From Arenicellales bacterium (GTDB lineage Bacteria; Pseudomonadota; Gammaproteobacteria; Arenicellales; JAJDZL01), in contig OZ244730.1 in NCBI GenBank assembly GCA_965219265.1, forward strand, positions 2,833,834-2,897,833: a DNA stretch of 64,000 nt, read 5' to 3'. Shown here one piece after another: positions 17,065 through 40,337 of the stretch. The notes under the pieces are model-generated. The model had not been told where the DNA came from, searched no databases, and was given only the letters and a program-made list of their open reading frames with translations. The number at the start of each line of letters is the position of its first letter. Positions within the stretch are counted from its first letter, which is position 1. The translations under genes were made by a program, and so were the position numbers.

Positions 17065-18420
<1,356 letters not shown>

Positions 18421-18478
18421 AGTCGCGAGACCCAGCGAATTCCACTCTCCACCATCTGCATGGCGGATTGCGATAAAT

Positions 18479-20432: not shown

Positions 20433-21517
20433 TGACGAGTAAACCACCTAAAAAAGGCGCTGAACTTGTACATCCCCAGATTCGAGAACTAACTGCATAT
20501 CGAGTTCAGCCAAACGACTGCGAGATCAAGCTGGATGCAATGGAGAGTCCGTATGGACTCGGTGAACCCTTGTTGGACCGCTGGCATCAGCAACTTAGGC
20601 GTGTAGATGTAAATCGATATCCGGATGCCAGTGGAGAAGCTCTGAAAAAGGGGCTACGGAGTGTATTTGAGATTCCTGACAACGTTGATGTAACGCTGGG
20701 GAATGGCTCGGACGAGCTCCTTCAGCTGATTCAGCTTGCAGTCGGTGGTCACGGACGGTGCATTATGGCGCCTCAGCCGTCTTTCGTTATGTACGAAATC
20801 ATAGCCCGATATACGAGAGGAAATTTTATCGGCGTCGATTTGGATGAGCATTTCCAACTACCTGAGGATGAGTGGCTGTCGTCAGTAGAAAGCAATCGGC
20901 CGGATTGCGTATTTTTCTCCTATCCGAACAATCCAACCGGTAATTTGTTTCCACCGGATGTTATTGAGGAAACCGCACGCCTGACGGATGGATTGGTCGT
21001 AGTTGATGAGGCTTATCATGCGTATTCCAGCGAGAGCATGATGTCCGCAATGAATGATCACGAAAATCTAGTGGTTGTCAGAACTCTATCGAAAAGTGGA
21101 TTGGCTGGATTACGGGTTGGCTATCTTGTGAGTCACCCTGCATGGGGGCATGAGTTCGAAAAACTGCGTCTTCCATACAACATTGGCAGTCTGCATCAGG
21201 AAACTGCGGTGTTCGCGTTGAATCACTGGGACGAAATTCAAATGAGCGAGCACATTATTGCCGAAAGATCACGGGTTTCGTCAGTTCTTGAAAAAGAGGA
21301 AAGATTAAGGGTATACCCGTCCGATACCAATTTTATTACGATCAAAGTAAAGCAGGGGCGGGCTTCAGAACTATTTGAAGCCCTTAAGAGTGAAGGTATT
21401 TTAATTAAGTATCTAGACGGAACTCACCCGATTCTGTCAAACTGTCTACGCATCACAATCGGAACAAAGGCGGAGAATGATTTGATGTGTAGTGCCTTGA
21501 TTCGCAATATTAAATAA
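20429..21517 (+). CDS. hisC: Histidinol-phosphate aminotransferase HisC
   Basis: Class II aminotransferase. PLP-lysine region RTLSKSGLAGLRVGY. 4-nt overlap with hisD. Confidence 0.93.
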   Translation: MMTSKPPKKGAELVHPQIRELTAYRVQPNDCEIKLDAMESPYGLGEPLLDRWHQQLRRVDVNRYPDASGEALKKGLRSVFEIPDNVDVTLGNGSDELLQLIQLAVGGHGRCIMAPQPSFVMYEIIARYTRGNFIGVDLDEHFQLPEDEWLSSVESNRPDCVFFSYPNNPTGNLFPPDVIEETARLTDGLVVVDEAYHAYSSESMMSAMNDHENLVVVRTLSKSGLAGLRVGYLVSHPAWGHEFEKLRLPYNIGSLHQETAVFALNHWDEIQMSEHIIAERSRVSSVLEKEERLRVYPSDTNFITIKVKQGRASELFEALKSEGILIKYLDGTHPILSNCLRITIGTKAENDLMCSALIRNIK

Positions 21518-21546: not shown

Positions 21547-23205
21547 ATGATCAATACCTCGCCCAACTCTCCGTATTATGGGGGAAGTCCCGGACAGAAT
21601 GTAGACGATATTGTTGAGCAGATGAATGAAAGCGACCTCCGTACTATTCTTGGAGAAGACGGCATATCAATTATCGCAGCAATTTCTGAGCCCAAGAACA
21701 AATTGGAAAGGATGCACCGGGTGGCTACAAATTTGCTGCGAAATTATGCCAACAACCTTCTAGTTCGTAGTGATATTCGAGAGATATTTTTAAACTACAT
21801 GTCAAGTGGAAAGCGTGTTGAGCTCGTACAAAGGTTAAATTTATCGAATATCGTCGCGCTAGCTAGCATTGATCCGATAAATGACGCTGTAACACGTCAA
21901 GCATACTTAGGATACTTCGGGATTGATGTTCAAGGAGCTGCTCCTTTCTTAAAGTCTCCAGACAAAACGGAAAGTTCGCCGAATTATGGATTATTCCCAT
22001 ATCAACGACGCACAATGAGACAAGTATGCACCGCAATTGGTGGAGGTCATGGCAGGGTTGTACTGCACATGCCTACAGGTTCGGGAAAGACACGAACGGC
22101 AATGCACATTGTTAGTCAAATTTTGTTGAATTCAGAACCATCTATAGTGGTTTGGTTAGCCGCAAGTGCAGAGTTGCTTGAGCAAGCGGCCGATGCGTTT
22201 CAGAATGCTTGGCCACATCTCGGAAATCGTGAAGTCCAAGTGTTGCGATTTTGGGGTGATCATACACCGGAACTGTCTGGTTTTTCAGATGGCATTGTGA
22301 TTGCGGGGCTTCAAAAAATGTGCGCACTAATGAAACGCGACCGACTTGGTTTACTTCGACTAGGGAAGTTGACTAGACTTGTCGTAGTCGATGAAGCTCA
22401 TCAAGCCATAGCACCTACTTACAAGGAAGTAATAACTACCTTGGCAGAGACAGGCATAAACAATGCACTCCTAGGTTTAACTGCAACACCGGGTCGAACA
22501 TGGTCAGATATAGAAATTGATGCACAACTGTCTGATTTTTTTGAAAATCGGAAAATTCCACTTCAAATTGAGGAAGATGTCAATCCCATTTCCTTTTTAG
22601 TAAATGAAGGATACTTAGCCAAGCCAACATTTCGTCGCCTAGAAGTGGAAACACCATTTAATTTCGATCAACACTCCATTCAAGTGTCAATAAACAGCGA
22701 CTACAATCCAGAAATTTTAGAAACTCTCTCAGAGGACTATAGTAGGAATGTAGTCATTTTGGATGAAATACGACGATTGGTTGACAAAGGGCACAAGCGA
22801 ATAATTTTTTTCGCATCCTCTGTGCGGCATGCCGAACTCATAGACGGGGCGTTGAATGCTTTGGATATCGATAGTCGAATTGTAACTGCTAATACCGGGT
22901 TGACGGAACGAAAGCGAATCATCACATTGTTCAGGGCAGAGAATTCGAAGCCGATGGTCTTAAGCAATTTTGGTGTATTAACGACAGGGTTTGACGCACC
23001 TAACACAAGTGCAGCCGTAATTGCCCGTCCAACAAAATCCCTGGTGTTGTTCAGTCAAATGGTTGGCCGAGCGATACGAGGGCCGAAAGCAGGTGGTAAC
23101 GAAAATTGCACAATATCTACTGTAGTTGACATAAACTTAACCGGCTTCGGAGATGTAGCTGAGGCATTCACTAATTGGGAGGATGTTTGGCATGAACCAA
23201 GTTGA
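21547..23205 (+). CDS. SF2 (DEAH) helicase, ResIII + Helicase_C type; first gene of the island; candidate PT-dependent restriction component
   Basis: Motif I HMPTGSGKTRTA, II VVVDEAHQA, III LGLTATPGR, V GFDAPNTSAAVIARPTKS, VI QMVGRAIRG. The N-terminal ~170 aa are unassigned. Confidence 0.85.
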   Translation: MINTSPNSPYYGGSPGQNVDDIVEQMNESDLRTILGEDGISIIAAISEPKNKLERMHRVATNLLRNYANNLLVRSDIREIFLNYMSSGKRVELVQRLNLSNIVALASIDPINDAVTRQAYLGYFGIDVQGAAPFLKSPDKTESSPNYGLFPYQRRTMRQVCTAIGGGHGRVVLHMPTGSGKTRTAMHIVSQILLNSEPSIVVWLAASAELLEQAADAFQNAWPHLGNREVQVLRFWGDHTPELSGFSDGIVIAGLQKMCALMKRDRLGLLRLGKLTRLVVVDEAHQAIAPTYKEVITTLAETGINNALLGLTATPGRTWSDIEIDAQLSDFFENRKIPLQIEEDVNPISFLVNEGYLAKPTFRRLEVETPFNFDQHSIQVSINSDYNPEILETLSEDYSRNVVILDEIRRLVDKGHKRIIFFASSVRHAELIDGALNALDIDSRIVTANTGLTERKRIITLFRAENSKPMVLSNFGVLTTGFDAPNTSAAVIARPTKSLVLFSQMVGRAIRGPKAGGNENCTISTVVDINLTGFGDVAEAFTNWEDVWHEPS

Positions 23206-25042
23206 AAATTACGAGCAGGGAGATTTATTTGACGCCCAAATTATTCCCCTAAAATTAGCCATTAAAGCGATGCGTGATTCTGGATATAAGAATACTGCGT
23301 ACGCACTCGCGGAGTTAATTGATAATTCGGTACAAGCAGCAGCCGATTGTATTGAAGTTATATGTATCGAAAAACGAGAAATCACAAGAATCCGCGAGGT
23401 TCGAAGACTCTGGAGTATTGGTGTACTTGATAACGGATCAGGCATGAATGAGCATACATTAAGAAAAGCGCTTCAATTCGGCAACGGAACCAGACTTGAT
23501 GATCGAACTGGAATTGGTCGTTTTGGTATGGGGCTTCCGAACTCATCTATTTCCCAAGCAGCACGAGTAGAAGTTTGGAGTTGGCAGAACGGCCCGGACA
23601 ATGCAATTTGGTCGTATATAGATCTCGAAGATATAGAAACTCAGAACATGAAGGAAGTGCCTAAACCTCAACATTCTCCAGTCCCCGATGATTGGCGAGA
23701 AATATCTGATTCTATTGAGCAACATGGAACACTAGTCTTTTGGTCAAAACTTGACGTCTCTAGGCTAACTTGGAAAAAAGCAGATCGGGCATTGCTCCGT
23801 ACAGAAGAGATTGTCGGACGAGTTTACAGAAAGTTCATTAAGGATGACAGTATCACAATTCGATTGTGTGCGATTGAGCAAGGTCAGAAATCTGCACATA
23901 TTGATTACAAAGCCAAATTGAATGACCCGCTATATCTCACTCCTTTGGAGTCACTACCTTCACCTTTCGATAAGAAGGCCATGTTTGAATCCGTGTTTGA
24001 TGAGGATCATTTGATCGAACATAGTGGAAAGAAGCATAAGGTAAAAGTTCGCTATTCTGTGGCTTCAGGAGACACAATTACCGAATCTAATCAAAGCGAT
24101 AGAGGACAAACAAAATATGGAAGACATGCAGCGAAAAATATCGGAGTTTCAGTGGTTCGAGCACATCGTGAAATTATGCTCGACTACGGGTGGTGTATTG
24201 GTTACGATCCGAGAGAACGTTGGTGGGGTGCTGAGGTTAAATTTGATCCGGCACTAGACGAGATTTTTGGTGTACCAAACAACAAGCAAGGCGCAACACA
24301 CTTTGCGGAACTAGCCACCACGGATTGGAAAGAACTCGCGGAAGAAGGCGAGGCATTTAGAGATGTGGTTAATCGCTTGAAGGAGGAAGGGGATCCTCGA
24401 GGTTGGTTGCTCGAACTAAGCGATAGCATTAAGCGGAATCTTCAGCAGTTACGTGAACATATAAGGGGGCAGAGTAAAGGAGTACGGTCTAGTAATAAAA
24501 AGCGCCATAACCAAGCCGACGAAGCTACCGAGACTGTTAATAAAGCGTGGAAAGAGCGATCAAAAACTGTTCCGCTTGGTGAATCCGAACAATCGCCGAC
24601 ACAAGATGACCTCAACGACATCCGTACCGACCTCACCCAGAACAAAGATTACAGTGAAGACTTTGCTGAAGAACTTGTTTCTCTGATTAAAGATGCGGAT
24701 TTGAGCGTAGTATTTCTTGAGGCAGATTTTCCTGATTCATTTCAACTATTCAATGTTGAATTGAAAGGAAATATTACAGAGATTGTATTCAATAGGAGAC
24801 ACCCCGCATTCGATGATATTTTTGGTACGGTAACTACCGTTGACGAGGACGTGAGTGAACTGTTGAAAGAAGAGTTAATTGAACGATTGACAAGGGCGTG
24901 CAACTCTGCAAAGGTAATTTTCGCAGCTTGGGCTCGCTATGAGCGAGAAGCAGGTCTTGAGCGTGCTAGTGCTCTTGAGAGAGTACGTTTTGATTGGGGA
25001 CAAATTGCGTCGAAATTCTTACGACCGGAATCAGATCTCTAG
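23183..25042 (+). CDS. GHKL (Bergerat-fold, HATPase_c-like) ATPase; candidate PT-dependent restriction component
   Basis: N-box ELIDNSVQA, G1 LDNGSGM, G2 GRFGMGLPNSS. The remaining ~400 aa are unassigned and end in an acidic helical tail. Overlaps the helicase gene by 23 nt, or 14 nt if the start is ATG 23192. Confidence 0.8.
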   Translation: MFGMNQVENYEQGDLFDAQIIPLKLAIKAMRDSGYKNTAYALAELIDNSVQAAADCIEVICIEKREITRIREVRRLWSIGVLDNGSGMNEHTLRKALQFGNGTRLDDRTGIGRFGMGLPNSSISQAARVEVWSWQNGPDNAIWSYIDLEDIETQNMKEVPKPQHSPVPDDWREISDSIEQHGTLVFWSKLDVSRLTWKKADRALLRTEEIVGRVYRKFIKDDSITIRLCAIEQGQKSAHIDYKAKLNDPLYLTPLESLPSPFDKKAMFESVFDEDHLIEHSGKKHKVKVRYSVASGDTITESNQSDRGQTKYGRHAAKNIGVSVVRAHREIMLDYGWCIGYDPRERWWGAEVKFDPALDEIFGVPNNKQGATHFAELATTDWKELAEEGEAFRDVVNRLKEEGDPRGWLLELSDSIKRNLQQLREHIRGQSKGVRSSNKKRHNQADEATETVNKAWKERSKTVPLGESEQSPTQDDLNDIRTDLTQNKDYSEDFAEELVSLIKDADLSVVFLEADFPDSFQLFNVELKGNITEIVFNRRHPAFDDIFGTVTTVDEDVSELLKEELIERLTRACNSAKVIFAAWARYEREAGLERASALERVRFDWGQIASKFLRPESDL

Positions 25043-25067
25043 CCATAGTTCTGATTAGTCAAAGTCA

Positions 25068-25982
25068 ATGATAGCTGACGGCGAACGTTTAAAATCTTTT
25101 CTGGAAAAAGCAAGAATTAAGGTTGTCCTATGCGCCCCTTTCATTAAGGAGAAGGTATTACAGACCATTCTTGAGGTTGTATCAGAATCAGTACAAGTCC
25201 AGATTGTCACGAGATGGAGAGCAAGAGAAGTAGCCGCGGGAATTAGTGATTTAGAAATATTCCACATAGCGAAGAAACGACCTAACACAAAGTTAGCACT
25301 ATTAGACGATTTACATGCCAAGCTCTATCTGGCAGACGAACAATGTCTCGTAGGTTCTGCCAATCTGACCGGTAGCGCCCTCGGATGGTCGAAACGTAGC
25401 AATATTGAACTTCTTATACATGCAAAACCGACAGATATTTATGTTGCTTTCCTTCTAGAACAGTTGAAAACAGCAGTACCGGCAACTATTGAAATACTGT
25501 CCGAAATAGAAGCGGCATCAACCGTTTTGAAATCAACGGTTCTTGATGAGGGACAAGACATGACAGGTGATATTGGTTTCCGTAAATTAGCTTGGTTACC
25601 GCGTTGTGCAGCACCGGATAAACTTTGGGAAATTTATAATGATCCGTTAACAACAGTAGTTGTCGAAAATACCAAGAAAGATGGGTGCTCCGATTTAAGG
25701 GATTTACAAATACACCACGGGCTTTCCAAAATTAAGTTTGAAGTCGCCGTACAAAATTCTCTCCTATTGATGCCAGCGTTTAATCAAATAATTGATGAGG
25801 TGCCCAAAGGTATAAAGGATAGTCGAGGCAAAGCACTTATCGCTAGATTTCGTCCAAATTTTGAGGAACAGAATTTGCAAAAACAGTGGTACATTGTTCG
25901 AGCATGGATTGGATACTTTTTTGTAGATAAATTTGAAGTAGCACCAGAATCGTTTATTACCCGCCTAAAGTCAAAACAGTAG
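25068..25982 (+). CDS. PLD-superfamily (single HKD) nuclease-like protein; candidate PT-dependent restriction component
   Basis: One HKD motif, HAKLYLADEQCLVGSANLTGSAL, in the N-terminal half, as in Nuc/NgoFVII/BfiI-type nucleases. C-terminal ~170 aa unassigned. Lies 25 nt after the GHKL gene. Confidence 0.75.
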   Translation: MIADGERLKSFLEKARIKVVLCAPFIKEKVLQTILEVVSESVQVQIVTRWRAREVAAGISDLEIFHIAKKRPNTKLALLDDLHAKLYLADEQCLVGSANLTGSALGWSKRSNIELLIHAKPTDIYVAFLLEQLKTAVPATIEILSEIEAASTVLKSTVLDEGQDMTGDIGFRKLAWLPRCAAPDKLWEIYNDPLTTVVVENTKKDGCSDLRDLQIHHGLSKIKFEVAVQNSLLLMPAFNQIIDEVPKGIKDSRGKALIARFRPNFEEQNLQKQWYIVRAWIGYFFVDKFEVAPESFITRLKSKQ

Positions 25983-26242
25983 AAAGTAAGTCTGTTGAGA
26001 ACGCCACTTATGTTATTCCGCGAATTCGAGGACACTAGTCTTTTGGACGTCATGAAAAGCAAAAATGATGGATATGCGTGATTAGAAATCTCTTGATATT
26101 ACTGGTTAGCTTAATGGTGTGAATTCACTAATTAGAATTTTCTGCTACTCAATACACATCATATTTATATAATAATGAATATCAAAATCGGGGACCGGCA
26201 ATGTATAAACGTCATAATATGACGTATTTATTCATTGCAGTC

Positions 26243-26304
26243 TTGACTTGAAGAGTGCATAAGAAAATAATGAACAAAACGAATTTAAAAAATTCGTTTT
26301 GTTC
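26243..26304 (+). promoter_or_regulatory. Candidate sigma70 promoter abutting a 33-bp palindrome (operator candidate) upstream of sspA
   Basis: TTGACT (26243-26248), 17-nt spacer, AATAAT (26266-26271). Immediately followed by gaacaaaacgaattt-aaa-aaattcgttttgttc (26272-26304), with perfect 15-bp arms. Confidence 0.35.
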
Positions 26305-26457
26305 AAATTCTCATCGGCAGTTCACAATTACCTTCCAGAAGAGGCAGCCACAAGAATTCTATATACATCTGCTCAAAATTATCAGGAAATTAGGAGAACT
26401 TCTACATACGATCAAACGTGTTCGTGTATCAACATATTACGACAAAGAGCGGTTGTA

Positions 26458-27618
26458 TTGAAAGAGATATACCTTGATTACAACGGTTCAACGCCAATAG
26501 ATCCTAGAGTCGCGGAAGTCATGGTGCCAGTTCTTGTTAAAGGCGTCGGAAATGCATCGTCAATGCATCGAATGGGGCAGCGTCAAGCGGCCGCAATTGA
26601 TGAGGCTCGTGAATATGTTGCCGCTTTGGTAGGCGGTCGTCCTTCAAATGTGGTGTTTACGGCGGGTGCGACCGAATCCAATAATTTGGCGCTGATTGGA
26701 ATTTTAAACAACGGGCCAAAATATAAGACAAAAATTCTTGTTTCTGCAGTTGAGCATGTTTCAGTACGGCAAACCGCGTGTTGGATTGGTGAGCAAAAGT
26801 TGGCAGAGATCGAATTTGTTCCTGTTACGAACGGAGGTTTTGTTGATCTTGATGCTTTAGAGGCTCTCGTTGACATTAATACTTTTTTAGTATCCGTAAT
26901 GGCTGCGAACAGCGAAACAGGTGTACTGAACCCCATAGAAAAAATCGCTGAGTTAGCGCATGCGAGCAATGCTCTGTTCCATTGTGATGCGACGCAGTTT
27001 GTGGGTCGATTGCCATTTGATCTAGAAAAGACTGGTGCCGATTTCGTGTCGGTAAGCGGACACAAAATTTGCGGCCCCAGTGGTGTAGGCGCACTTATCG
27101 GTACTCGACAGAGTATGCGAGTGTTGCAACCAATCATTCATGGCGGTGGTCACGAACAAGGACTACGTTCAGGGTCGTTGAATACATCTGGCATCGTTGG
27201 ATTGGGCGCTGCCGCCCAAATTGCAGCAGACGTGCGGGTTTCGGAATCTGAAAACATTGCGAAACTCCGCGACTATCTAACATCCGAGTTAAAGTCACGT
27301 ATTTCCGGAGTCTACGAGAACGGCGATGTTGCAAAAAGACTGCCGAATACTGTCAATGTCCGCTTTGAATCCGCCAACGCAGAAGCGGTATTGGTTAACA
27401 TGGACCCTGTAGCGATATCGACAGGAAGTGCTTGCAGTTCTGGTTCTGTTGAACCATCTAGAGTTTTGTTAGCCATGGGTATAAGCCGCGAAGCGGCCTT
27501 TGAATCCGTGCGATTCAGTTTAGGGCGCTTTACAACACGCGAAGAAATTGATCTTGCCATACAACAAACCACTTCAGCTGTCGGCTATGTTCGGTCTATG
27601 ACTCGAGAGGCGATTTGA
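26458..27618 (+). CDS. sspA: Cysteine desulfurase, class V aminotransferase (SspA/DndA/IscS-like)
   Basis: IYLDYNGSTPIDPRV N-terminus, SVSGHKICGPSGVGAL PLP-lysine motif, SACSSGS active-site Cys loop. A TTG at 26458 gives the canonical N-terminus. The ORF is open from ATG 26299, but that 53-aa extension is low-complexity. Confidence 0.85.
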   Translation: MKEIYLDYNGSTPIDPRVAEVMVPVLVKGVGNASSMHRMGQRQAAAIDEAREYVAALVGGRPSNVVFTAGATESNNLALIGILNNGPKYKTKILVSAVEHVSVRQTACWIGEQKLAEIEFVPVTNGGFVDLDALEALVDINTFLVSVMAANSETGVLNPIEKIAELAHASNALFHCDATQFVGRLPFDLEKTGADFVSVSGHKICGPSGVGALIGTRQSMRVLQPIIHGGGHEQGLRSGSLNTSGIVGLGAAAQIAADVRVSESENIAKLRDYLTSELKSRISGVYENGDVAKRLPNTVNVRFESANAEAVLVNMDPVAISTGSACSSGSVEPSRVLLAMGISREAAFESVRFSLGRFTTREEIDLAIQQTTSAVGYVRSMTREAI

Positions 27619-28592
27619 TGAGACTTGTTCAGGCGGCCGCTCCGGTGTTTGCTCGGCATGAAACATTCCATCCCAGATACGGGTGGTTTCGGAAAGCATA
27701 TTCATGCACAACCGCTGATCCAACAATATTCAGTCGAGACGATGCACCAGTGCGAATTGGAGTTGGCAAAAATATGGTTAGATCAATCCGCTTCTGGGGG
27801 CTAGCAGCAAAACTTATCGAGGAAAGCACTCAAACATATTGTCGCCGAACTTCCGAATTGATTACCACCGACATGGGTGAAGCAATGTTCGGCACTTTTG
27901 GATGGGATCAGTATATGGAAGATCCGGGAACCATGTGGTTGCTACATTGGCTATTGCTTGCTCCTAGGTCCCGGTTACCTGTTTGGTGGTTGGTATTCAA
28001 TGAATTTAACGCAATCGAATTTACTGACCATGACCTTGAATCTGTAGTGACAATGCAACTCGAAATGATTTCGGAGTGGAGAAAACCTTATACGTCATCA
28101 ATTAAAAAGGATGTGAGTACTTTGCTACGTTCTTATGCATCAACAGTACGGATTAAAAATATTGGTATTGATGACCTTCTGGATTGCCCTCTTCGCGAAT
28201 TGAAATTAATTCGTTATTCTGACGAGAGCAAAAAGTATCGGTTTACGTTTGGGATCAAACCAACACTGCCGCCAGAGATTTTAGTTTACGCAGCATTAGA
28301 TTTCATCGTGCGTGCTGATGCAAACGTAAAAACCGTAACACTAAGCCGACTTGCTCATGAATCTGGCGCTCCTGGCAAGATTTTCAAGCTGTCCGAGAGT
28401 GAGATGGTCGCTATACTTGAACCAATCGTAAATCGGTTCAGTTCACTTAATCTCATTTCTACCGCTGGGGCCACACAACTAACGTGTTCTGATGAACCAA
28501 GTAAAATCGCAATTGAAGTGCTAAAAAATTACTATTGTTCTTCAAATTACATTAGTAGTGATAGACTGGTTGCCGACGACTTTTACCACTGA
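27618..28592 (+). CDS. sspB: DUF4007-family protein (SspB, PT-system nickase component)
   Basis: N-terminal FARHETFHPRYGWFRKAY matches the DUF4007 hallmark as I recall it. The ATG shares 1 nt with the sspA stop (tgATG). Confidence 0.7.
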   Translation: MRLVQAAAPVFARHETFHPRYGWFRKAYSCTTADPTIFSRDDAPVRIGVGKNMVRSIRFWGLAAKLIEESTQTYCRRTSELITTDMGEAMFGTFGWDQYMEDPGTMWLLHWLLLAPRSRLPVWWLVFNEFNAIEFTDHDLESVVTMQLEMISEWRKPYTSSIKKDVSTLLRSYASTVRIKNIGIDDLLDCPLRELKLIRYSDESKKYRFTFGIKPTLPPEILVYAALDFIVRADANVKTVTLSRLAHESGAPGKIFKLSESEMVAILEPIVNRFSSLNLISTAGATQLTCSDEPSKIAIEVLKNYYCSSNYISSDRLVADDFYH

Positions 28593-28605
28593 TGAAAGTA
28601 AACTG

Positions 28606-31600
28606 ATGGCAACTCTAGCGAATTACGTATCAATTATCAGTCGCTTTGCGCAGTCTGTGAACCTTGATCGTGATTGTGACCAAGCAAGTTCGCTTAGTGG
28701 GTACATAGTTACAGACCGTACGCTCAGTGTCGTAGGACGGGTGGCTGAAACCGCGGCCATAGGGAAATCGGGGGGCGCATGGTCACTAACAGGCCCCTAT
28801 GGTTCCGGAAAGTCATCGCTTGCCATATTGCTTGATGCTATGTTCGGCCCATCGTCAAAAACCCGTGACAAAGCATTGAAACTGCTTGATGAAGCATCAC
28901 CGTCGGTTAGAAAGTTGATTCAAGAGTCACACTATCGGTATCGGACAAACACTAGAGGTTTTCATCGTGGTTTGGTAACCGCTTGTCGAGAACCTCTATG
29001 TTTGACGCTATTACGTGCATTGAACATAGCCGTCATCCGTAGTTACGGTAAGATTCCTCCTATTAGCAAATTCCAAGCTGCAAAATTGTTGCGGCAGGCA
29101 TTGAAAGATGCAGAGAATGACGATCCCACTACAGCGCCTTCACCAACTGCTGTAATTGAAATCGCTCGCTGTTTAGCAAAGGATGCACCATTGTTGTTAG
29201 TAATCGACGAATTTGGCAAAAATCTTGAAGCAATACGAGACGATAACAATACCGACCCATATCTACTACAACAGCTTGCTGAGGCAGGCCAAGGTTCAGG
29301 ACTGCCAATATTTATACTTACGCTTCAACATCAGTCTTTCGAAGATTATTTTGTTGGAACCAACGATTCACAACGACGAGAATGGAGTAAAGTTCAAGGC
29401 CGATTCGAAGACATTGCTTATGTTGAATCCACTGCGCAATCGCGAAAATTAATCGGATCAGTATTCGATATTGGAAACTCCGAATTGAAAGCTCGAATTG
29501 CTCGATGGGCAAATGACCGATATCGGGAATTGCAAACACTCGGTGAGAACGAACTTGCAGACCCGGATACAATTGCATCTTGCTACCCACTGCATCCGCT
29601 GACTGCGTTGGTTTTGCCGGAACTCTGCAATCGGTTTGGACAGCATGAACGCACGATGTTTTCTTTTCTAACGAGTGCCGACCCCGCAAGCGCTGTTGCA
29701 TTTATTACAAACACACCTCTTCCAAGAGGCAGGAACCTTCCATCCATCGGACTTGAGGCAATATACGATTTTTTTGTTTCAAATGGTACGCTAGCAAACA
29801 TATCTAATTGTCAATCGAGCCGATGGATAGAGATAGCTATCCGCCTTCGAGATGTATACGCCCTTTCTAGGGAACAAATTGAACTGGCAAAATCTATTGC
29901 TGTACTCAATTTAATATCCACATCTGGAACAATTCGGGCGTCACGCAAGATACTCGCTCTTACTAATAACGATGTAAGAAACAATCTAAAAAATCTTGAA
30001 TCTGCCAGCATTGTCACCTACAGGGACTATGTAGATGAATATCGTGTCTGGCAAGGAACAGATGTCGACATCAACCAACTATTAGAATTTGCTTATCAAC
30101 GAGTACAAAAGCAATCACTTGTTGAAATTCTCAAAGTTATAGACAGTCCAACACCAGTAGTAGCTGCACGCCATAGTGCACAACAGGAGACTCTTCGAGT
30201 GTTCACTAGGCGCTATACCGATGGTAACGAAATCATTGAACCCTTAGACCCGTTTTCGCCGTTTGATGGAGAGGTACTACTAGTAGTTGGAACCAAAGTA
30301 CCACGCTTGAAGCAGTGGAATGATTCTCATAAACCAGTGGTGGCTGTCGTTCCAGAAACGATTGACGTTATTGATCGCGTCGCCCGAGAGACTGTAGCAA
30401 TTCATGCTGTGTTGGATGAACCTGTCGTAACAAACGATTGGGTTGCACAATGTGAATTAAGGGAACGACTAGCACATAAACAATCCGTGCTTGAAAAAGT
30501 GTTCCATACCACATTTGGTGCGAACACAACTAAATGGACTCTGTTGGACTCCAAAGACGGAATCGTACTGCCTATTGGGCGAGGAAGTGCGGCGTTGTCG
30601 ACTGCTGCTGACAAAGCGTATCCATCAACGCCGATGATTCGCAACGAAATGGTAAACCGCACTACGCTCAGCACCCAAGGGGCGAAAGCACGACGCATGG
30701 TGCTCCAAGCAATGATCGAAAATGGTTCCAACTCAGATCTTGGGTTTGCAGGTTACGGTCCTGAAGTAGCAATTTATAGCGCAGTCTTGAAACAAACCGG
30801 TATTCATGGACGTGACCGCCGGAATGATTTCATGGTTTTTCGAAAACCTACTGAGAAAAACCTGTTTCCGGTTTGGGATGCTATTGAAGATGAATTTAGG
30901 CGTGCAAGATTCAGTCGTGTAAACGTAAGTAATATATTTGCAACGCTACTTGCACCTCCGATTGGCATGAAGGCAGGTGTTGTACCTATATTTGTGACCG
31001 CAGCATTGCTTGCTTTCCGCAATGAAGTAGCAATTTACGAGCATGGAACATTTAAACCGCTACTGACTGCAGACCTTTCAGAACGGATGGTTAAGAATCC
31101 TAGCCATTTCGATATCAAGCACTTTGCTAATAACACTGGTGCACGGCGGCAAGTGATCGATGCGCTTGTCGAATGTTTTAATCTAAAGCCAAGCTTTCGG
31201 AAACACAGAGTTGCAAATGTCCTTACGGTCGTTGGCTACTTGGTTACTACAATTCGTAAACTGGACAACTATACCATTCAGACATGTAATCTTTGTCCCG
31301 ATACGATCAAATTAAGAGACACTATATTAAGTGCTGTCGAACCTGATAAACTGCTGTTTGAAAGTCTTCCCGATGCGATTGGTCTTCAACAGATACCTGC
31401 CAGCACAAAAATTTATTTAAGTACTCGAAAATATGCAAAAAGAGTTAAGTCTGCACTTGAAGAACTCGTAGGTTGCTATGATCAACTTCTAACGGAACTA
31501 TTTGATTTTATTCTCGAAATCTGTATTGAATCGGATCGAATTTCAATTACTGGTCAGGCAGCTGCGCTAAAGAACGAAGTGCTCAATCCCCAAATTAAAA

Positions 31601-32067
31601 CTCTTGTTGGAATACTGGCTAACAATTATTTCAATAATGACGATTGGGCTAACGCCGTTGCAACCATCGTGGCTAAGAAAGCGCCGGCAGAATGGACGGA
31701 TGAAGACTTGCTTGTTTTTAGGAGTGAATTTTCGCAACAAGCTAATACCTTTCGACGTTTAGTCGCTCTTCATGCAGAACACCGAACTCATGGCGACGGC
31801 CCGTTCAATTCACTTCGAGTAGCAATTACTAAATCAGATGGTAGCGAATTCGTTGACTTGGTTGGCATTGATGAGAATTTTCGCTATGAGGCAACCAAAT
31901 TGCTCAATAGCAGTCTTGAAAAGCTAACGAAAACCACAGGGTATTCAGTGCGTCGAGCCCATAGTAATTTGTTGGCCTTGCTTTGTGAACAACTAATGTT
32001 AGAATCAGGCGATGATTTAGGCAAAAATCTGGTGGAATTTAAAAATAAGGAAGCTAAAAATGGCTAA
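28606..32067 (+). CDS. sspC: Large P-loop ATPase (SspC-like)
   Basis: Walker A LTGPYGSGKSSLA, Walker B LLLVIDEFGKNLE. The ~850 C-terminal residues have no motif I recognise. Alternative GTG start at 28558. Confidence 0.65.
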   Translation: MATLANYVSIISRFAQSVNLDRDCDQASSLSGYIVTDRTLSVVGRVAETAAIGKSGGAWSLTGPYGSGKSSLAILLDAMFGPSSKTRDKALKLLDEASPSVRKLIQESHYRYRTNTRGFHRGLVTACREPLCLTLLRALNIAVIRSYGKIPPISKFQAAKLLRQALKDAENDDPTTAPSPTAVIEIARCLAKDAPLLLVIDEFGKNLEAIRDDNNTDPYLLQQLAEAGQGSGLPIFILTLQHQSFEDYFVGTNDSQRREWSKVQGRFEDIAYVESTAQSRKLIGSVFDIGNSELKARIARWANDRYRELQTLGENELADPDTIASCYPLHPLTALVLPELCNRFGQHERTMFSFLTSADPASAVAFITNTPLPRGRNLPSIGLEAIYDFFVSNGTLANISNCQSSRWIEIAIRLRDVYALSREQIELAKSIAVLNLISTSGTIRASRKILALTNNDVRNNLKNLESASIVTYRDYVDEYRVWQGTDVDINQLLEFAYQRVQKQSLVEILKVIDSPTPVVAARHSAQQETLRVFTRRYTDGNEIIEPLDPFSPFDGEVLLVVGTKVPRLKQWNDSHKPVVAVVPETIDVIDRVARETVAIHAVLDEPVVTNDWVAQCELRERLAHKQSVLEKVFHTTFGANTTKWTLLDSKDGIVLPIGRGSAALSTAADKAYPSTPMIRNEMVNRTTLSTQGAKARRMVLQAMIENGSNSDLGFAGYGPEVAIYSAVLKQTGIHGRDRRNDFMVFRKPTEKNLFPVWDAIEDEFRRARFSRVNVSNIFATLLAPPIGMKAGVVPIFVTAALLAFRNEVAIYEHGTFKPLLTADLSERMVKNPSHFDIKHFANNTGARRQVIDALVECFNLKPSFRKHRVANVLTVVGYLVTTIRKLDNYTIQTCNLCPDTIKLRDTILSAVEPDKLLFESLPDAIGLQQIPASTKIYLSTRKYAKRVKSALEELVGCYDQLLTELFDFILEICIESDRISITGQAAALKNEVLNPQIKTLVGILANNYFNNDDWANAVATIVAKKAPAEWTDEDLLVFRSEFSQQANTFRRLVALHAEHRTHGDGPFNSLRVAITKSDGSEFVDLVGIDENFRYEATKLLNSSLEKLTKTTGYSVRRAHSNLLALLCEQLMLESGDDLGKNLVEFKNKEAKNG

Positions 32068-32908
32068 TGCACCCCGACATATTTGTGGAATATCAGGTGG
32101 CAAAGACTCAAGCGCACTCGCTGTTTATTTGAGGGGAAAAGTACCCGAAATGGAATATTTTTTTTGCGACACCGGAGCGGAATTGCCTGAAACTTACGAG
32201 TACCTCACTCGCCTTGAGGTAATTCTCGGCAAACAAATTACTCGGTTGAATTCACAACGCGGTTTCGACCACTGGTTCGAAATATTTCGCGGTACGCTCC
32301 CATCACCTCAAATGCGATGGTGCACTACAAACATGAAAATTAAACCCATTGAAGAGTGGGTTGGTGATGATCCAGTTTTCTCTTATGTTGGCATTCGTGC
32401 CGATGAAGCGAATCGCAAGGGATATATTTCAACCAAGCCTAATATTCAGACTAAATTTCCATTTATTGAAGATGAAATAAACCGCGATGGTGTTATGAAA
32501 ATTCTTTCTGATGCGGGCATTGGCCTGCCAAGATATTATGAATGGAGGACACGTTCGGGTTGTTATTTTTGCTTTTATCAACGCAAAGCAGAGTGGATTG
32601 GGCTTTCTGAGCGGCACCCTGAATTATTTGAACGCGCAATCGCAATTGAACAAAAAGTTTTACGTGATGCTGGAATTGATGGAGATGCAGATTTTACGAA
32701 TCAAGCAATGCGAGGTCGCCAATACACCTGGTCAGGTGGTGAAACCTTAGTAGAGCTCCTGTCTCGCAGGGACGAAATACTAGAGCGACACGAAGCGGCA
32801 GTATCAAATGCAAAAACAAATAGAAAAAATATTCCACTAATTGAGGCGCTAGCTGATGCCCTTGATGATGAGGACGATACAATACCATGTATGGTTTGTG
32901 CGCTTTGA
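32060..32908 (+). CDS. sspD: PAPS-reductase/PP-loop ATP pyrophosphatase family protein (SspD, DndC-like)
   Basis: PP-loop ISGGKDSSALAVYL, Cys motifs RSGCYFCFY and IPCMVCAL. 8-nt overlap with sspC (atggctaa). Confidence 0.8.
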   Translation: MANAPRHICGISGGKDSSALAVYLRGKVPEMEYFFCDTGAELPETYEYLTRLEVILGKQITRLNSQRGFDHWFEIFRGTLPSPQMRWCTTNMKIKPIEEWVGDDPVFSYVGIRADEANRKGYISTKPNIQTKFPFIEDEINRDGVMKILSDAGIGLPRYYEWRTRSGCYFCFYQRKAEWIGLSERHPELFERAIAIEQKVLRDAGIDGDADFTNQAMRGRQYTWSGGETLVELLSRRDEILERHEAAVSNAKTNRKNIPLIEALADALDDEDDTIPCMVCAL

Positions 32909-33177
32909 AGAAAATGGCCATATAAATTGTTCACTGACTATATATATTTCCGATTTGCACAACAGTCTGCAAGGGACAGTAGAAAACATCGTACATACTT
33001 GGTCAAATTTTAGGTTGACTGTATGTGAAGCATGAAGCCTTTTGTTCGAAACAGAACGAATATGACGGCTTTTCCAATTCTGATCATAACTCAATTTTGT
33101 ACATCTTTGACTGCCACTTTTTACGTCTAAGTTACTCCTGGAGTTATTGATTCTAATCCTAGCGATTTAATTGCACA

Positions 33178-35562
33178 ATGAATGACATTGAAACAAGATA
33201 CAAAACCGAAGCCACGACTTTCGGTCGCATGATGATTGAAACCCAAGGAGTAGGGTTTAAGGTTCCCGAATACCAACGAACCTATGATTGGGCAGAAGAA
33301 CATCTGAATAGACTAATTGATGATTGCTTGGATGGCTTGTACCAACTCTCCCAATCTAAAAATTATGTCCGAATTCCATACACATTCTTGGGAACAATTA
33401 TCTTAGTTAAAGAGGAGAACAAGAAAGAACCTTATTTCAATGGCAGGTCACTTGCCCTTGTTGATGGTCAACAGCGCGTGACTTCCCTAGTACTACTCTG
33501 TTGCGTGTTATATGAAAAATTGAACATTTTGAAAAATACGACCATTTACGGCGGCTTGCAAAATACTCCCGACTATATTAAAGAATGGCTTGAAGACGAA
33601 GTTGAGCATTTTTCAAGTCATCTTTTTAAATGCGCAATTGGAACACTGGAAAAGATGCACTCAGTGTTAACATACTTCCCTCGAATTATTCGCTCAGGTG
33701 ATTCAAGAGGCTACGGAACACATGCTGAATATCGCTCGAGTATCAGCATATTTCTAATGTTGTTTAATGATTACGTTAGAGATCAAAATTTTAATTTATT
33801 CTCACTTGGTCGTTCAAAAATAGGAAAGAGCAATTCAGCAGAATTCGAGAGCTTGCTGGACTCCTACGAAAAAATTAGAAAAAAACTAAATGTTCTAGAT
33901 GACGCTAATTCACAAGATTCTGAAGTTAATCTCGTAAACAAGAACAAATTCAAAGAAAAACAAACAAAAAACCTATTTCAAAAATTACACCTATTGGAAA
34001 CAAATGACAAATCTAATAAAGCGCAAACAGCCTTAAGCACGCTTTCGAAATGTAGCGAAACAGAGGGATTGGTAAGAACGATTCTGTTTTCTGCTTACAT
34101 GCTGGATTATGTCGTGTTAACGACAGTTCAAACTGATGATGAAGAATCTGCATTTGATATTTTCGATTCACTTAACACTACCGGAATTCCACTAACAGCT
34201 CTTGAGACATTAAAACCGCTTGTCGTAGATTACGAAGAAAATGTCGCAAAAATTGAATTTATTCGTTCGTATTCTTACTTGAGTTTCGATAGGATAAAAC
34301 GAAATTTGGATGATGTCGGAGCATTTAGGCTGAACAATGATAGGCGACAGAAAGCAACTAGAGATTTAATTATCTCGTTCGCACTGTACATGGATGGGGC
34401 TAAGCTAGCGCGTAATTTGAGAGATCAGCGGAAATACTTGCGGGATCATTTTCACAAATTCAATGAGGTTGAATCTAAAAGAAAGTATATAGAATCAATT
34501 GCCGATTTAGCTGAATTTCGCTATGAATTTTGGATGCGAGAAGGCAAACGTGGAAGCAATTTGAAGCTTGAAACGGTTAGTTCGCATGAGGATACGCAGT
34601 TGTGCCAATTGTGTATCACACTTATGAAAGATATGGGAATGACTTTGACTGTTCCTATTATTGCACGATATTGGCGGTGTATTATCAAACAAAACGGCCC
34701 AGATAATTCTAACCATGCTGAATTTTTAGCGGCTGTAAAAGCGATAACCGCTTACGTGGTATTACGAAGAACATATACAGGCGGTTCCGAGAGAATTGAT
34801 ACTGAACTTCGGAAGATTATGTCTAGCAATCCATATCTTGATCTTCCCCCTTTGCATTGCGGAGAAGAACTATCCGATCAAGTCTGGTCAGTTAAGCAAC
34901 TACAAGAAGTGCTTCGGCACAAACTTAGAAATTACATTTGTAGACAACCTGAACTAGAACTAGATTCCAGTATTTGGTTAGACCGTGCCAAAGAAATCAC
35001 TCTATACGAGAATAGTCAAAGTTTATGCCGCTTTTTATTGTTGGCAGCAGCCCATATGTCAATCCCAAAAAACGGAACATTAACTCGAAAAGGAGTAAGG
35101 GAAGATGACGACAAAAGTTACCTCACACTTACCGCTTGGAATGACTCCAAATTCAAGACAATTGAACATATTGCACCAAAGGAATCTACTGATGAATGGG
35201 ACGATAAGATATACAGCAAACAAAAGCAACACACGATAGGTAATCTAACTTTGCTTCCGTTGCCAGAAAATTCAAGTGTGAGTAACAAAAATTGGGAAAA
35301 GAAAAAACTGTTTTACAAAATCTGTTCTGCGGCAACAAATGAAGAACTTGACGAAATATTGGAGACTGCCAAACTACAGCAAATTTCAATAGGTGAAAAA
35401 ACAATCCAGTTCCTCAAAGAACCTAGTCGAAAGAGATTGTCAATGCTTGTTCCTATAGCTAACGCTGATCAATGGAATGCAGATTGGATTGAAAAAAGAT
35501 CGCTCAATATCCTTCAACTCGCTTGGGATATCATCGCTTCTTGGTTAGAAATAGAAAACTGA
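33178..35562 (+). CDS. sspE: DUF262 (N-terminal) + DUF1524 His-Me/HNH-like (C-terminal) nuclease, SspE / GmrSD-like
   Basis: DUF262 motifs FKVPEYQRTYDW and LVDGQQRVTSL. C-terminal IEHIAPKE...HTIGNLTLLP...NSSVSNKNWEKK. A 269-nt gap after sspD suggests its own promoter. Confidence 0.75.
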   Translation: MNDIETRYKTEATTFGRMMIETQGVGFKVPEYQRTYDWAEEHLNRLIDDCLDGLYQLSQSKNYVRIPYTFLGTIILVKEENKKEPYFNGRSLALVDGQQRVTSLVLLCCVLYEKLNILKNTTIYGGLQNTPDYIKEWLEDEVEHFSSHLFKCAIGTLEKMHSVLTYFPRIIRSGDSRGYGTHAEYRSSISIFLMLFNDYVRDQNFNLFSLGRSKIGKSNSAEFESLLDSYEKIRKKLNVLDDANSQDSEVNLVNKNKFKEKQTKNLFQKLHLLETNDKSNKAQTALSTLSKCSETEGLVRTILFSAYMLDYVVLTTVQTDDEESAFDIFDSLNTTGIPLTALETLKPLVVDYEENVAKIEFIRSYSYLSFDRIKRNLDDVGAFRLNNDRRQKATRDLIISFALYMDGAKLARNLRDQRKYLRDHFHKFNEVESKRKYIESIADLAEFRYEFWMREGKRGSNLKLETVSSHEDTQLCQLCITLMKDMGMTLTVPIIARYWRCIIKQNGPDNSNHAEFLAAVKAITAYVVLRRTYTGGSERIDTELRKIMSSNPYLDLPPLHCGEELSDQVWSVKQLQEVLRHKLRNYICRQPELELDSSIWLDRAKEITLYENSQSLCRFLLLAAAHMSIPKNGTLTRKGVREDDDKSYLTLTAWNDSKFKTIEHIAPKESTDEWDDKIYSKQKQHTIGNLTLLPLPENSSVSNKNWEKKKLFYKICSAATNEELDEILETAKLQQISIGEKTIQFLKEPSRKRLSMLVPIANADQWNADWIEKRSLNILQLAWDIIASWLEIEN

Positions 35563-36094: not shown

Positions 36095-37546
36095 TTCGGA
36101 GTGAAAAATGGTCCCCGAAAAACCTTCAAATCAAACCCAGTTCGACCTGTTCTGACTGCAACTGGACAACATCATCAACCGCAATCACGAACTCTACCGC
36201 CTGGCCGAGATGATCGACTGGTCGGTGTTCGACGAAAGCTTCGGCCCCCTGTATTGCCCGAATAAGGGGTGCCCCGGCAAACCCACTCGCCTGATGGTGG
36301 GCCTGCAAATGCTGAAGCATTTGTACGGCATGTCTGACGAGGAAGTGGTCGACAGATGGGTGGAGAATCCTTACTGGCAGAAGTTTTGCGGCGAGGTCTA
36401 TTTCCAGCATCAACCTCCGATTGACCCGAGCAGTATGACCCGATATCGAAAGCGCATTGGCGAAAGTGGCTGTGAGTTGATTCTGCAGCTCACAGTGACT
36501 GTTGGAGTGACCAGTAAAGCGGTGAAACCCTCGGATCTTAAAAGAGTGACGGTGGATACCACGGTGCAGGAGAAGGCGGTGAGTTATCCGACCGACAGCA
36601 GGTTATTGAACCGCTCGCGTGAGCGGCTGGTTCGTTTATGCCGAAAACATGCCGTGGTGCTTCGCCAGAGTTATGCTCGAAAAGGACCGAAAGCCTTACT
36701 GAAAGCGAACAGATATGCCCATGCCCGGCAATATCGTCGAATGCGTCGCGAAGTCAAAACACTGCGAACCTATTTGGGACGTGTGGTTCGCGATATCGAA
36801 CGCAAGATTGCGTCAGACCCCACACGACAAGGGCAGTTTGCTGAGGAACTGTGGTTAGCGCAACGGTTGTTGAAGCAGCGACAACACGACCGGAACAAAC
36901 TCTACAGCCTGCATGCTCCGGAAGTGGAATGCCTTGCCAAGGGCAAAGCTCATAAGCAGTATGAGTTTGGAGTGAAGGTGAGTATCGCGGCGACCAACAA
37001 GAGTAACTTCGTGGTCGGCGCGATGGCTTTATCAGGTAACCCTTATGATGGACATACGTTGAGTGGAGCACTGCAGCAGGTACGTCGGATGAGCGGGCAG
37101 CGGATAGATGAGGTTTTTGTGGATCGTGGTTACCGGGGGCATGGCGAGAGTCTAAGCGAAGTGTATATTTCCGGTCAGAAGCGAGGCATCACCACGCAAC
37201 GCTTAAAGCGAAGCCTGAAACGTCGACAGGCGATTGAACCGATTATTGGTCACCTGAAGAGCGATGGATTGCTGGGTCGCAATTATCTCAAAGGCACACT
37301 CGGTGACCAGATGAACGTGCTGCTGTGCTGTGCAGGACATAATTTACGCTTGATATTGAAGCGCCTGAGGTTTTTTTGTCTCGATTTTTGGGGACGGTTT
37401 TGGGCGCCGATACGCTGTTGGGAGGGGGCAAATCGTCTCATCACGGAAATCAATTCCGGTGCACGATGGTTACAGAGTCGATCAACAAATTCGTTCGCGA
37501 CTCAATTGCTTCCAACCACGGGATAAATGGATTTTTCAGGGTCGAC
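36095..37546 (+). mobile_element. IS5-family insertion sequence (boundaries approximate)
   Basis: DDE transposase ORF. Visibly more GC-rich than the flanks. Imperfect terminal inverted repeat candidates with core TGAAAAAT (36102-36109) and ATTTTTCA (37531-37538), extended by tcg on each outer side. Confidence 0.7.
36108..37526 (+). pseudogene. IS5-family DDE transposase with an in-frame TGA at codon 16
   Basis: ATG 36108 encodes MVPEKPSNQTQFDLF, then TGA (36153-36155), then LQLDNIINRNHELYRLAEMIDW in the same frame as ORF 36210-37526. Family motifs: NPYWQKFCG, VDRGYRGH, IEPIIGHLKSDGLLGRNYLKG. A shorter product from Met 36210 remains possible. Confidence 0.7.
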
Positions 37547-37561
37547 TGATTAGCTTGTCGT

Positions 37562-37693
37562 CATTCCTTTGGGGAATGGCCGACGGTGTTTGGTGACAAG
37601 AAGATGACCGCTGCGCTGTTGGATCGGTTGACGCATCACTGCGAAATTATTGAGACCGGCAATGAGAGCTGGCGCTTCAGGAATCGAAGTTGA
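37562..37693 (+). pseudogene. C-terminal fragment of an IS21-family IstB helper ATPase
   Basis: Translates [42 protein letters not shown], the conserved IstB tail. Everything upstream is missing and is replaced by the IS5 element. Confidence 0.8.
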
Positions 37694-37729
37694 TGAAAGG
37701 TAGAAAGGAGGGTGTTTTTTCGGAAATTT

Positions 37730-37761
37730 TACTGAGCCCGAGCCTCGGTTCGGGCTCAGTA
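37730..37761. repeat. Perfect 12-bp inverted repeat (hairpin) in the IS21-remnant 3' flank
   Basis: tactgagcccga-gcctcggt-tcgggctcagta. Confidence 0.6.
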
Positions 37762-37797
37762 AAGGGGGGTCAATTTTCAATGACATTTGACACCTGT

Positions 37798-40336: not shown

Positions 40337-40337
40337 A

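Follow-up and report, generated by a model that had tools for sequence, protein, structure and literature searches.

A helicase/GHKL/PLD gene trio as a candidate second partner of the SspABCD phosphorothioate writer, stacked with SspE inside a his operon

Can a single phosphorothioate (PT) writer serve two different restriction modules within one natural locus? The question is raised by a 64,000-nucleotide stretch of the Arenicellales bacterium contig OZ244730.1 (hereafter the window), in which eight intact, co-oriented + strand genes fill positions 21547-35562 according to the open reading frame (ORF) list and family scans. They encode an SF2 helicase, a GHKL ATPase and a PLD/HKD nuclease (the trio), followed by SspA, SspB, SspC, SspD and SspE. 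An earlier note, made from the sequence of the window, had described the helicase/GHKL/PLD genes upstream of sspABCD and a DUF262-DUF1524 gene downstream, all on the + strand, and every detail of this description was confirmed by the ORF list, Pfam and PADLOC. It had also proposed a natural instance of the stacking known for SspE and SspFGH. This background was cited correctly: SspE and SspFGH are compatible with one SspABCD, their protection is additive and 36 genomes carry both (PMC8092258, Wang et al. 2021). From the comparative analysis, we consider it likely that the locus is a horizontally acquired island with one PT writer, SspABCD, and two independent restriction modules, both of which would depend on the mark of that writer.

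The SspABCD-SspE system is said to go back to Xiong et al. 2020. In the window, SspB (DUF4007), SspC (BrxC-like ATPase) and SspD (PAPS reductase-like) occur together with the cysteine desulfurase SspA in contiguous, overlapping genes. SspE consists of an N-terminal DUF262/GmrSD_N NTPase domain with the motif DGQQR96 and a C-terminal DUF1524/GmrSD_C nuclease domain (Pfam and motif inspection), and its PADLOC match extends over the full length. Judged by the PADLOC models, SspABCD-SspE of the window is canonical, and the family matches of the island genes are far beyond chance. Systems of this type have been described in PMC8092258 and PMC9646914; in published work SspABCD writes single-strand PT and SspE is a PT-stimulated NTPase/nickase. 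Single-strand PT at a defined motif, for example CpsCA, and PT-dependent restriction of phages are hallmarks of the system.

The trio was searched for in other bacteria using the proteins of the window. Species-representative genomes yielded 8 loci. Another 19 hits came from complete plasmids, six of them being inspected, and metagenomes contributed 80 loci with GHKL identities of 40-68%. Altogether, 97 trio loci from several phyla were fetched, the GHKL identity ranging from 33 to 98%. SspB/C/D were encoded on the same fragment in 63 of the 91 trio loci outside the window's own lineage, and in 31 of the 32 loci in which the trio is flanked by about 5 kb or more on either side. When GHKL proteins of ≥90% identity were collapsed, sspBCD was present in 48 of 67 non-redundant loci overall and in 22 of the 23 well-flanked ones. 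Organisms carrying the trio belong to the Gammaproteobacteria, Alphaproteobacteria (Pannonibacter, Roseobacter, Mesorhizobium, Aminobacter, Agrobacterium), Cyanobacteria (Trichormus, Planktothrix, Geminocystis), Bacteroidota/Rhodothermota (Hymenobacter, Rhodothermales), Latescibacterota, Entotheonella and Spirochaetota (Treponema). In the genome loci (Latescibacterota, Gammaproteobacteria, Entotheonella, Rhodothermales), SspA/B/C/D were located beside Hel-GHKL-PLD in seven of eight cases.

Two gene orders are the most common: sspB-C-D followed by Hel-GHKL-PLD on the same strand (31 loci) and the trio convergent with sspBCD (26 loci). The distance between sspD and the helicase gene is mostly 88-400 bp. 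Usually the trio comes right after sspD and thereby occupies the slot normally held by sspE; sometimes it resides inside the ssp operon. A Pannonibacter plasmid displays the order SspBCD-Hel-GHKL-PLD, the trio of a Trichormus variabilis plasmid is placed between sspD and sspA, and that of a Roseobacter plasmid is convergent with SspABCD. The order SspB-SspC-SspA-Hel-GHKL-PLD was found on the Treponema saccharophilum plasmid pTS1 (locus L095, 1528-11696), where the GHKL identity is only 33%. On the same plasmid, the SspC-like protein comprises 1201 aa and the annotation shows no separate gene for a PAPS reductase (SspD); SspD may be part of a fusion, be absent or have its gene at another site.

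Twelve plasmids carry a trio-type GHKL gene, and all of them stem from organisms that also appear in a search of plasmids for SspB (97 records). Eleven of these plasmids are among the records listed in that search and Hymenobacter sp. GOD-10R is represented in its genus count only, so that the trio is present on about 12 of 97 SspB-bearing plasmids. GHKL relatives with an identity of ≤27% were found in unrelated contexts, without helicase and PLD genes, which indicates that the Ssp-linked family ends at approximately 30% identity. We conclude from these comparisons that the trio appears to be a conserved module and a dedicated partner of the Ssp writer.

Some trio loci contain additional genes. 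A conserved pair of genes coding for a DndB-family (DGQHR) protein of about 420 aa and a protein of about 173 aa without family match is located between or beside sspD and the helicase gene in about ten loci (L004, 6554-8328; also L006, L007, L013, L039, L047 and L005/L015) and is absent from the window. Three loci carry a long DndB-domain protein, which has 774-783 aa in the cyanobacterial loci L014 and L069. In Trichormus, a 774-aa 'DndB' protein occupies the position of SspE. If it were a divergent SspE, the window would represent a circularly permuted version of that arrangement. This idea was rejected, as the protein has no PADLOC SspE match and no significant BLASTP similarity beyond DGQ(Q/H)R.

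What are the three proteins? The helicase contains a RadD/XPB/type-III-res-like core (residues 148-523) with the motifs GSGKT178, DEAH282, TAT312 and QMVGR504, and its closest solved structure is RadD. Family scans gave no match for the N-terminal region of about 145 aa. The GHKL protein is composed of a Bergerat fold, an S5-like transducer and a helical/beta C-terminal region. Its motifs E44xxxN48, D83xGxG and the G110-G117 loop do not vary among 31 homologues of 62-88% identity. A HMMER scan retrieved 557 clusters (50% identity) of GHKL relatives at E ≤ 1e-30, and most of the 150 hits listed are full-length proteins of about 600 aa. MORC2 was the sole match in a profile search of the PDB. 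The AlphaFold2 model of the GHKL protein has a mean predicted local distance difference test (pLDDT) score of 67.7 and is good over approximately residues 20-300. Foldseek placed the ATPase modules of MORC3/MORC4/SMCHD1/MORC2 on top with E ~1e-12, ahead of MutL, Hsp90 and GyrB. As far as the model goes, the protein is predicted to fold like the MORC ATPases.

The PLD protein exhibits a single H83-x-K-x4-D motif followed by GSANLT, and both are invariant in 35 homologues. In its AlphaFold2 model (pLDDT 84), the N-terminal half matches the single-HKD nucleases NucT, Zucchini and BfiI, and a NucT/Zucchini-like fold is predicted for the nuclease. The C-terminal part (approximately residues 175-304) is modelled as a helical domain with a terminal beta-hairpin. 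Whole-chain fold searches assigned neither this domain nor the lower-confidence C-terminal region of the GHKL protein. An overlap of 23 nt between the helicase and GHKL genes in the window, and one of similar length in other loci, suggests translational coupling. A separate observation concerns the 396-aa protein P0189, which aligns with the PLD protein at 65% identity across 86% of the query but is annotated as Pfam DUF4007; either a PLD-SspB fusion or an error in gene calling may explain this.

Several known systems were considered as a name for the trio. The earlier note had compared the locus with SspE plus SspFGH. No PADLOC model for SspF, SspG or SspH matched, and the domain content differs from the published description, in which SspF is a Walker-A protein, SspG is uncharacterised and SspH has an FtsK/SpoIIIE-like C-terminus (PMC8092258). 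SspFGH was rejected on these grounds. The Streptomyces 'SspH' HATPase regulator represents a coincidence of names. The Pbe reference set comprises PbeA (HKD fused to an SF2 helicase), the small protein PbeB, the CxC ABC ATPase PbeC and the DndE-like PbeD. PbeABCD was discarded, since only the helicase core matches PbeA (8e-23, model positions 243-618 of 672) and PbeC and PbeD are absent. The match of the helicase to NCBIfam TIGR04095 (dnd_restrict_1, 'DNA phosphorothioation system restriction enzyme'; 1.7e-13) is far below the cutoff. DISARM was excluded as well: the PLD protein gave only weak DrmC-like matches (4.5e-7; NCBIfam 31.9 bits versus a cutoff of 133), and PADLOC and NCBIfam scans revealed no DrmA, DrmB (DUF1998) or DISARM methylase in the island. 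MzaB matches only residues 27-224 of the GHKL protein with 60.8 bits (cutoff 850), and no MzaA/C/D/E partners accompany it, arguing against Mza. Azaca and Mokosh were rejected because the matches are partial and at the domain level, the PLD protein being weakly similar to ZacB and MkoB.

Writer and trio seem to have been combined more than one way. SspC proteins linked to the trio fall into at least four PADLOC subfamilies, mostly 02780; those of the window and Trichormus belong to 02781 and others to 02779 and 02778. The trio of the window is 52-71% identical to the trios of L001-L008, whose SspC proteins are only 23-27% identical to that of the window. Conversely, it is only 33-43% identical to the trio of Trichormus, whose SspC is of the window's subfamily. 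This discordance indicates that trio and writer have different histories and points to module exchange. Outside the lineage, the nearest SspE homologues (41-46% identity) are encoded in plain SspA/SspBCD-SspE cassettes without a trio (L099, L100). The arrangement of the window is best explained by the joining of a trio of the Gammaproteobacteria/Latescibacterota type to an SspABCD-SspE cassette of another subtype.

A survey of both effector types beside one sspBCD, as suggested in the earlier note, was run on the trio loci. Full-length SspE-type genes were present in L025, L067, L073, L082 and L091 and partial ones in L020 and L081, which amounts to about 8% of the loci. The SspE proteins confirmed with PADLOC belong to subfamilies 02792 (L025) and 02789 (L073 and L082), compared to 02786 in the window, and L091 encodes a more distant GmrSD-type protein. 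Moreover, the position of SspE relative to the trio varies among L025, L073, L082 and L091, which have different gene orders. This variety of subfamilies and orders, at about 8% of loci, marks the window as a genuine and recurrent, if minority, case of stacking. When SspE of the window was used as query, only four plasmids were found, none with the trio, a count that is a lower bound because this query is insensitive. The proposal of natural stacking on one SspABCD is upheld by comparative genomics, with a full-length SspE next to a trio module that is almost always found beside sspBCD. The second module is not SspFGH but a different, apparently unnamed partner.

Two loci deserve mention in this context. 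In L020, a 248-aa ORF (5554-6300) directly following the PLD gene shares 42% identity with the first third of SspE of the window and looks like a truncated SspE remnant beside the trio. The metagenomic contig L098 (444-12334) carries SspB-SspC-SspD, a complete PbeA-B-C-D-like set (PbeA 5.7e-190, PbeC 3.8e-48) and then SspE. Here, Pbe is paired with an Ssp rather than a Dnd writer and is stacked with SspE.

How might the two modules of the island work? Canonical SspE would constitute one of them and act in parallel with the trio. The other would be made up of an SF2 translocase/helicase, a MORC/MutL-like dimerising GHKL clamp and a single-HKD (Nuc/Zucchini-type) nuclease, for which a dimer is expected. 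The three proteins might form an ATP-dependent restriction complex analogous to the R subunits of type I/III systems, to PbeA (HKD-helicase fusion) and to MutL-UvrD-MutH. In such a complex the GHKL dimer would clamp onto DNA as a matchmaker, the SF2 helicase would translocate or unwind, and the HKD nuclease dimer would cut DNA that lacks the SspABCD mark. As a more tentative extension, which may well turn out to be wrong, the trio could represent a third, hitherto unrecognised and widespread kind of Ssp-coupled restriction machine that reads single-strand PT in a MutL-MutH-like, strand-aware manner. It would attack unmarked DNA and SspE would be switched on by the same mark, so that one signal would be interpreted by two sensors of opposite logic. 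The suggestion that the two effectors act on different stages is speculation.

Several points weigh against a dedicated, writer-dependent restriction module. The surveyed loci were found via the GHKL protein and mostly derive from metagenomes, and the sample is not an unbiased census. On a few plasmids, trio and sspB are 8-17 kb apart. L001, on a Latescibacterota chromosome (trio at 8392-12787), is the only well-flanked locus without sspB/C/D within 10 kb on either side. No PT reader was identified among the trio proteins, in which the helicase N-terminus, the GHKL C-terminus and the PLD C-terminal domain are without assigned fold, and gene linkage alone cannot separate a role in restriction from one in maintenance or repair. 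The case of L001 would suit a trio that is an autonomous, PT-independent MORC/paraMORC-type ATP-dependent nuclease and shares defence islands with Ssp, two unrelated systems being encoded side by side. The unrelated contexts of distant GHKL relatives, the free combination of the trio with different SspBCD subtypes and the many different partners of operons consisting of GHKL, SFII helicase and nuclease genes (PMC2292703) point in the same direction. We nevertheless regard autonomy as quite unlikely given the presence of sspBCD in nearly all non-redundant well-flanked loci from at least six phyla, the operon-like intergenic distances and the insertion of the trio between ssp genes in cyanobacteria and Treponema. 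Furthermore, neither a methyltransferase nor any other self-marking gene accompanies the trio, which would leave an autonomous DNA-cutting machine without evident self-protection.

A slightly better, though still small, chance is given to the trio as an accessory that serves the PT writer in maintenance or repair and works like MutL-UvrD-MutH on SspB-made nicks, on the removal of mis-placed or oxidised PT or on modification density. Its parts list (MutL/MORC-like GHKL protein, helicase, small nuclease) mirrors methyl-directed mismatch repair, and since Ssp marks are single-stranded, strand discrimination is conceivable. Many trio loci also carry a DndB-like regulator, and within the same loci the trio is conserved at 40-71% compared to 23-47% for SspBCD, unlike typical fast-evolving effectors. 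Against this role, most trio loci have no other nuclease partner. With the trio in the sspE slot and SspE mostly missing, these loci would be writers without a restriction arm. In addition, HKD and SF2 helicase proteins beside PT writers have been interpreted as restriction components (PMC10853773), and the locus lies in a low-GC mobile island. Finally, stacking might be apparent only, with one effector module functional and the other a silent or decaying passenger. The want of a consensus promoter in the sspD-sspE gap and upstream of the helicase gene, the SspE fragment beside the trio in L020 and the comparatively high ratio of nonsynonymous to synonymous substitution rates (dN/dS) of SspE would be in line with this. 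Compared with the relatives L009 and L010 (dS up to 0.46), dN/dS was 0.10-0.31 across all eight genes: 0.10-0.14 for the helicase, 0.10-0.19 for GHKL, 0.11-0.16 for PLD, 0.10-0.27 for SspA-D and 0.30 for SspE, the fastest-evolving protein of the array, which is still under constraint. All eight ORFs are full length, catalytic motifs are intact throughout and the complete array has been retained in lineages whose proteins are 76-98% identical. Intact motifs and constrained dN/dS argue that neither effector module is a pseudogene, an outcome that the earlier note had named as a refutation of its proposal, and we judge a single functional module very unlikely. The reading of one writer with two restriction modules is the one we prefer.

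The coordinates of the island and its surroundings are compiled in Table 1. On its 5′ side the island is preceded by mlaD, grxD, murA, hisG, hisD and hisC. SspE is followed by an IS5-family transposase gene, a fragment of an enolase-superfamily gene and then hisB, hisH, hisA and hisF. The his cluster is otherwise contiguous, and the island separates hisC from hisB, which share the same orientation. Island, transposase gene and gene fragment add up to about 16.7 kb of foreign DNA between the two, a location in the his operon that was absent from the earlier note. With 38-44% the GC content of the island is lower than the 48-50% of its flanks. Three metagenome contigs (L009-L011; GHKL identity 87-98%) have the same order hisC-Hel-GHKL-PLD-SspA-B-C-D-SspE. 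No match to the island was obtained by megablast against 5,426 E. coli genomes.

Table 1. Positions of the array genes, of candidate regulatory elements and of neighbouring genes in the window
Feature	Position	Strand	Length	Family match or remark
SF2 helicase	21547-23205	+	552 aa	Pfam ResIII 2.6e-23, DEAD, Helicase_C
MORC-like GHKL ATPase	23183-25042	+	619 aa	HATPase_c_3 6e-21
Single-HKD PLD-family nuclease	25068-25982	+	304 aa	PLDc_2 2e-8
SspA, cysteine desulfurase	26458-27618	+	386 aa	TTG start; PADLOC 5.3e-131; Aminotran_5 3e-77
SspB	27615-28592	+	325 aa	PADLOC 8.6e-104; Pfam DUF4007 3.7e-86
SspC, BrxC/PglY-like ATPase	28558-32067	+	1169 aa	PADLOC PDLC02781 E=0, 1018 bits
SspD, PAPS-reductase-like sulfur transferase	32060-32908	+	282 aa	PADLOC 2.5e-108; PAPS_reduct 1.7e-10
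SspE	33178-35562	+	794 aa	PADLOC PDLC02786 1.6e-214 over residues 4-790; GmrSD_N + GmrSD_C
PLD-sspA gap	25983-26457		475 nt	
sspD-sspE gap	32909-33177		269 nt	
Candidate sspABCD regulatory region	26209-26305	+		palindromes + promoter-like site
Palindrome	26209-26225			7-bp stem
Promoter-like site	26243-26271	+		TTGACT-17-AATAAT
Perfect inverted repeat	26271-26305		16 bp	TGAACAAAACGAATTT-aaa-AAATTCGTTTTGTTCA
murA-hisG-hisD-hisC	18344-21517	+		
hisC	20429-21517	+		
IS5-family transposase	36210-37526			
Enolase-superfamily gene fragment	37690-38058		122 aa	C-terminal, MR_MLE_C
hisB-hisH-hisA-hisF	38208-41138	+		

Within the array, the GHKL and PLD genes are 25 nt apart, and overlaps of 4 nt (SspA/B), 35 nt (SspB/C) and 8 nt (SspC/D) connect the writer genes. 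The only sizeable gaps are those before sspA and before sspE, exactly as the earlier note had given them. For sspA, a longer ORF starting at 26299 is not backed by the family models, and the 386-aa call is also found in relatives. The true start of SspC may be located a few codons downstream, the gene of one relative being called 16 codons shorter. In L011 (7173-11477; contig coverage 1.49x), the genes of both SspC and SspD are broken into two ORFs; these splits are probably sequencing errors rather than true pseudogenes because both genes are intact in the 99%-similar L010.

The transposase ORF next to the island aligns to its NCBIfam model only from model position 25 and may be 5′-truncated or have another start. 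Terminal inverted repeats were looked for around the transposase gene and not found, and a search of plasmids for DNA resembling this region was likewise negative. Insertions have probably left the enolase-superfamily fragment behind as a remnant. Scans for Rfam families and tRNAs across the entire window returned nothing, indicating that there is neither an integration tRNA nor a noncoding RNA in the gaps.

The earlier note had deduced three transcription units from the two gaps, a view that is supported for one boundary. In the PLD-sspA gap, the promoter-like site listed in Table 1 is the best + strand site of the region (10 of 12 positions). The perfect 16-bp inverted repeat begins at the last base of its -10 hexamer and runs downstream, and a palindrome with a 7-bp stem is situated 46 nt upstream of it. 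Both palindromes are conserved in relatives. The gap as a whole is 92% conserved compared to relatives that diverge more in their coding regions, its core elements show no variation, and folding of its DNA gave a z-score of -8.2. It looks like a regulated promoter with putative operator sites, and both palindromes are probably operators for some regulator. The other two starts are different. The helicase ATG follows the hisC stop codon after 29 nt, preceded by an AGGT Shine-Dalgarno-like site, and no promoter-like or terminator-like site was found between stop and ATG. As there is no room for a promoter of its own after hisC, the trio may be transcribed by read-through from the his operon. Conservation of the sspD-sspE gap is lower (85%), and a consensus promoter was not found in it. 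Three transcription units are possible, as is read-through from the his operon into the trio and from sspD into sspE.

What does the locus add to the PT field? The principle of stacking is already known from SspE and SspFGH (PMC8092258), and the function of the trio is inferred from sequence throughout. No paper linking the helicase/GHKL/PLD trio to Ssp was found in the open-access literature and preprints, and an earlier description elsewhere is possible. Two large comparative papers on PT and BREX systems (one of them PMC10853773) mention no GHKL partner of Ssp, PADLOC v2 has no models for the trio, and a 2025 review names only dndFGH/sspFGH, sspE and pbeABCD as PT restriction branches. Next to most sspBCD clusters, neither SspE nor SspFGH is found (PMC8092258). 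A conserved trio on approximately 12% of the plasmids with SspB and in several phyla would explain some of these 'orphan' writers and would bring a bacterial MORC-type ATPase into the field. It would also offer a tractable system for studying how an epigenetic mark on the DNA backbone is linked by a GHKL clamp to a helicase and a nuclease. Together with its relatives, the window provides a natural, apparently intact double-effector locus for studies of additivity and division of labour.

Among known systems, MutL-UvrD-MutH mismatch repair resembles the trio by a GHKL clamp, a helicase, a small nuclease and a strand-specific mark. This is a structural analogy only; in contrast to the repair system, the trio has no MutS-like sensor, shows no sequence relationship beyond the GHKL fold and is set in a defence island. 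Operons of GHKL, SFII helicase and nuclease genes occur with many different partners and have been predicted to be restriction-modification systems (Iyer, Abhiman & Aravind 2008, PMC2292703). These MORC/paraMORC operons show lateral mobility, and their products were predicted to respond to an epigenetic mark by looping and cleaving DNA (PMC2292703). Like them, the trio combines a GHKL + S5 ATPase with a neighbouring Rad25-like SFII helicase and a nuclease, which is sometimes of the HKD type in those operons, the three genes of the window being joined by the short overlap and gap described above. Family scans found no methylase in the island. Whereas DNA methylation is the self-mark of the MORC/paraMORC operons, the constant neighbour of the trio is the PT writer SspBCD, a link not described in that work.

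Closer to PT biology, HKD and SF2 helicase proteins adjoin PT writers and have been read as restriction components (PMC10853773). The trio shares with PbeABCD and these proteins (PMC10853773; TIGR04095) an HKD nuclease and an SF2 helicase beside a PT modification module. However, nuclease and helicase are separate proteins in the window, with the MORC-like GHKL ATPase between them, PbeB/C/D (CxC ABC ATPase, DndE-like) are lacking, the partner is Ssp instead of Dnd, and the scores are far below the family cutoffs. With the combination of SspABCD, SspE and SspFGH (PMC8092258), the window has in common that one writer is shared by two different restriction modules; its second module, in contrast, contains no family in common with SspF, SspG or SspH. 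The closest likeness is to SspABCD-SspE itself, of which all five genes are present at full length in the canonical order sspA-B-C-D-E, with DGQQR and both domains in SspE. To this system the window adds a helicase/GHKL/HKD module immediately upstream on the same strand, and the entire array is embedded in a his operon.

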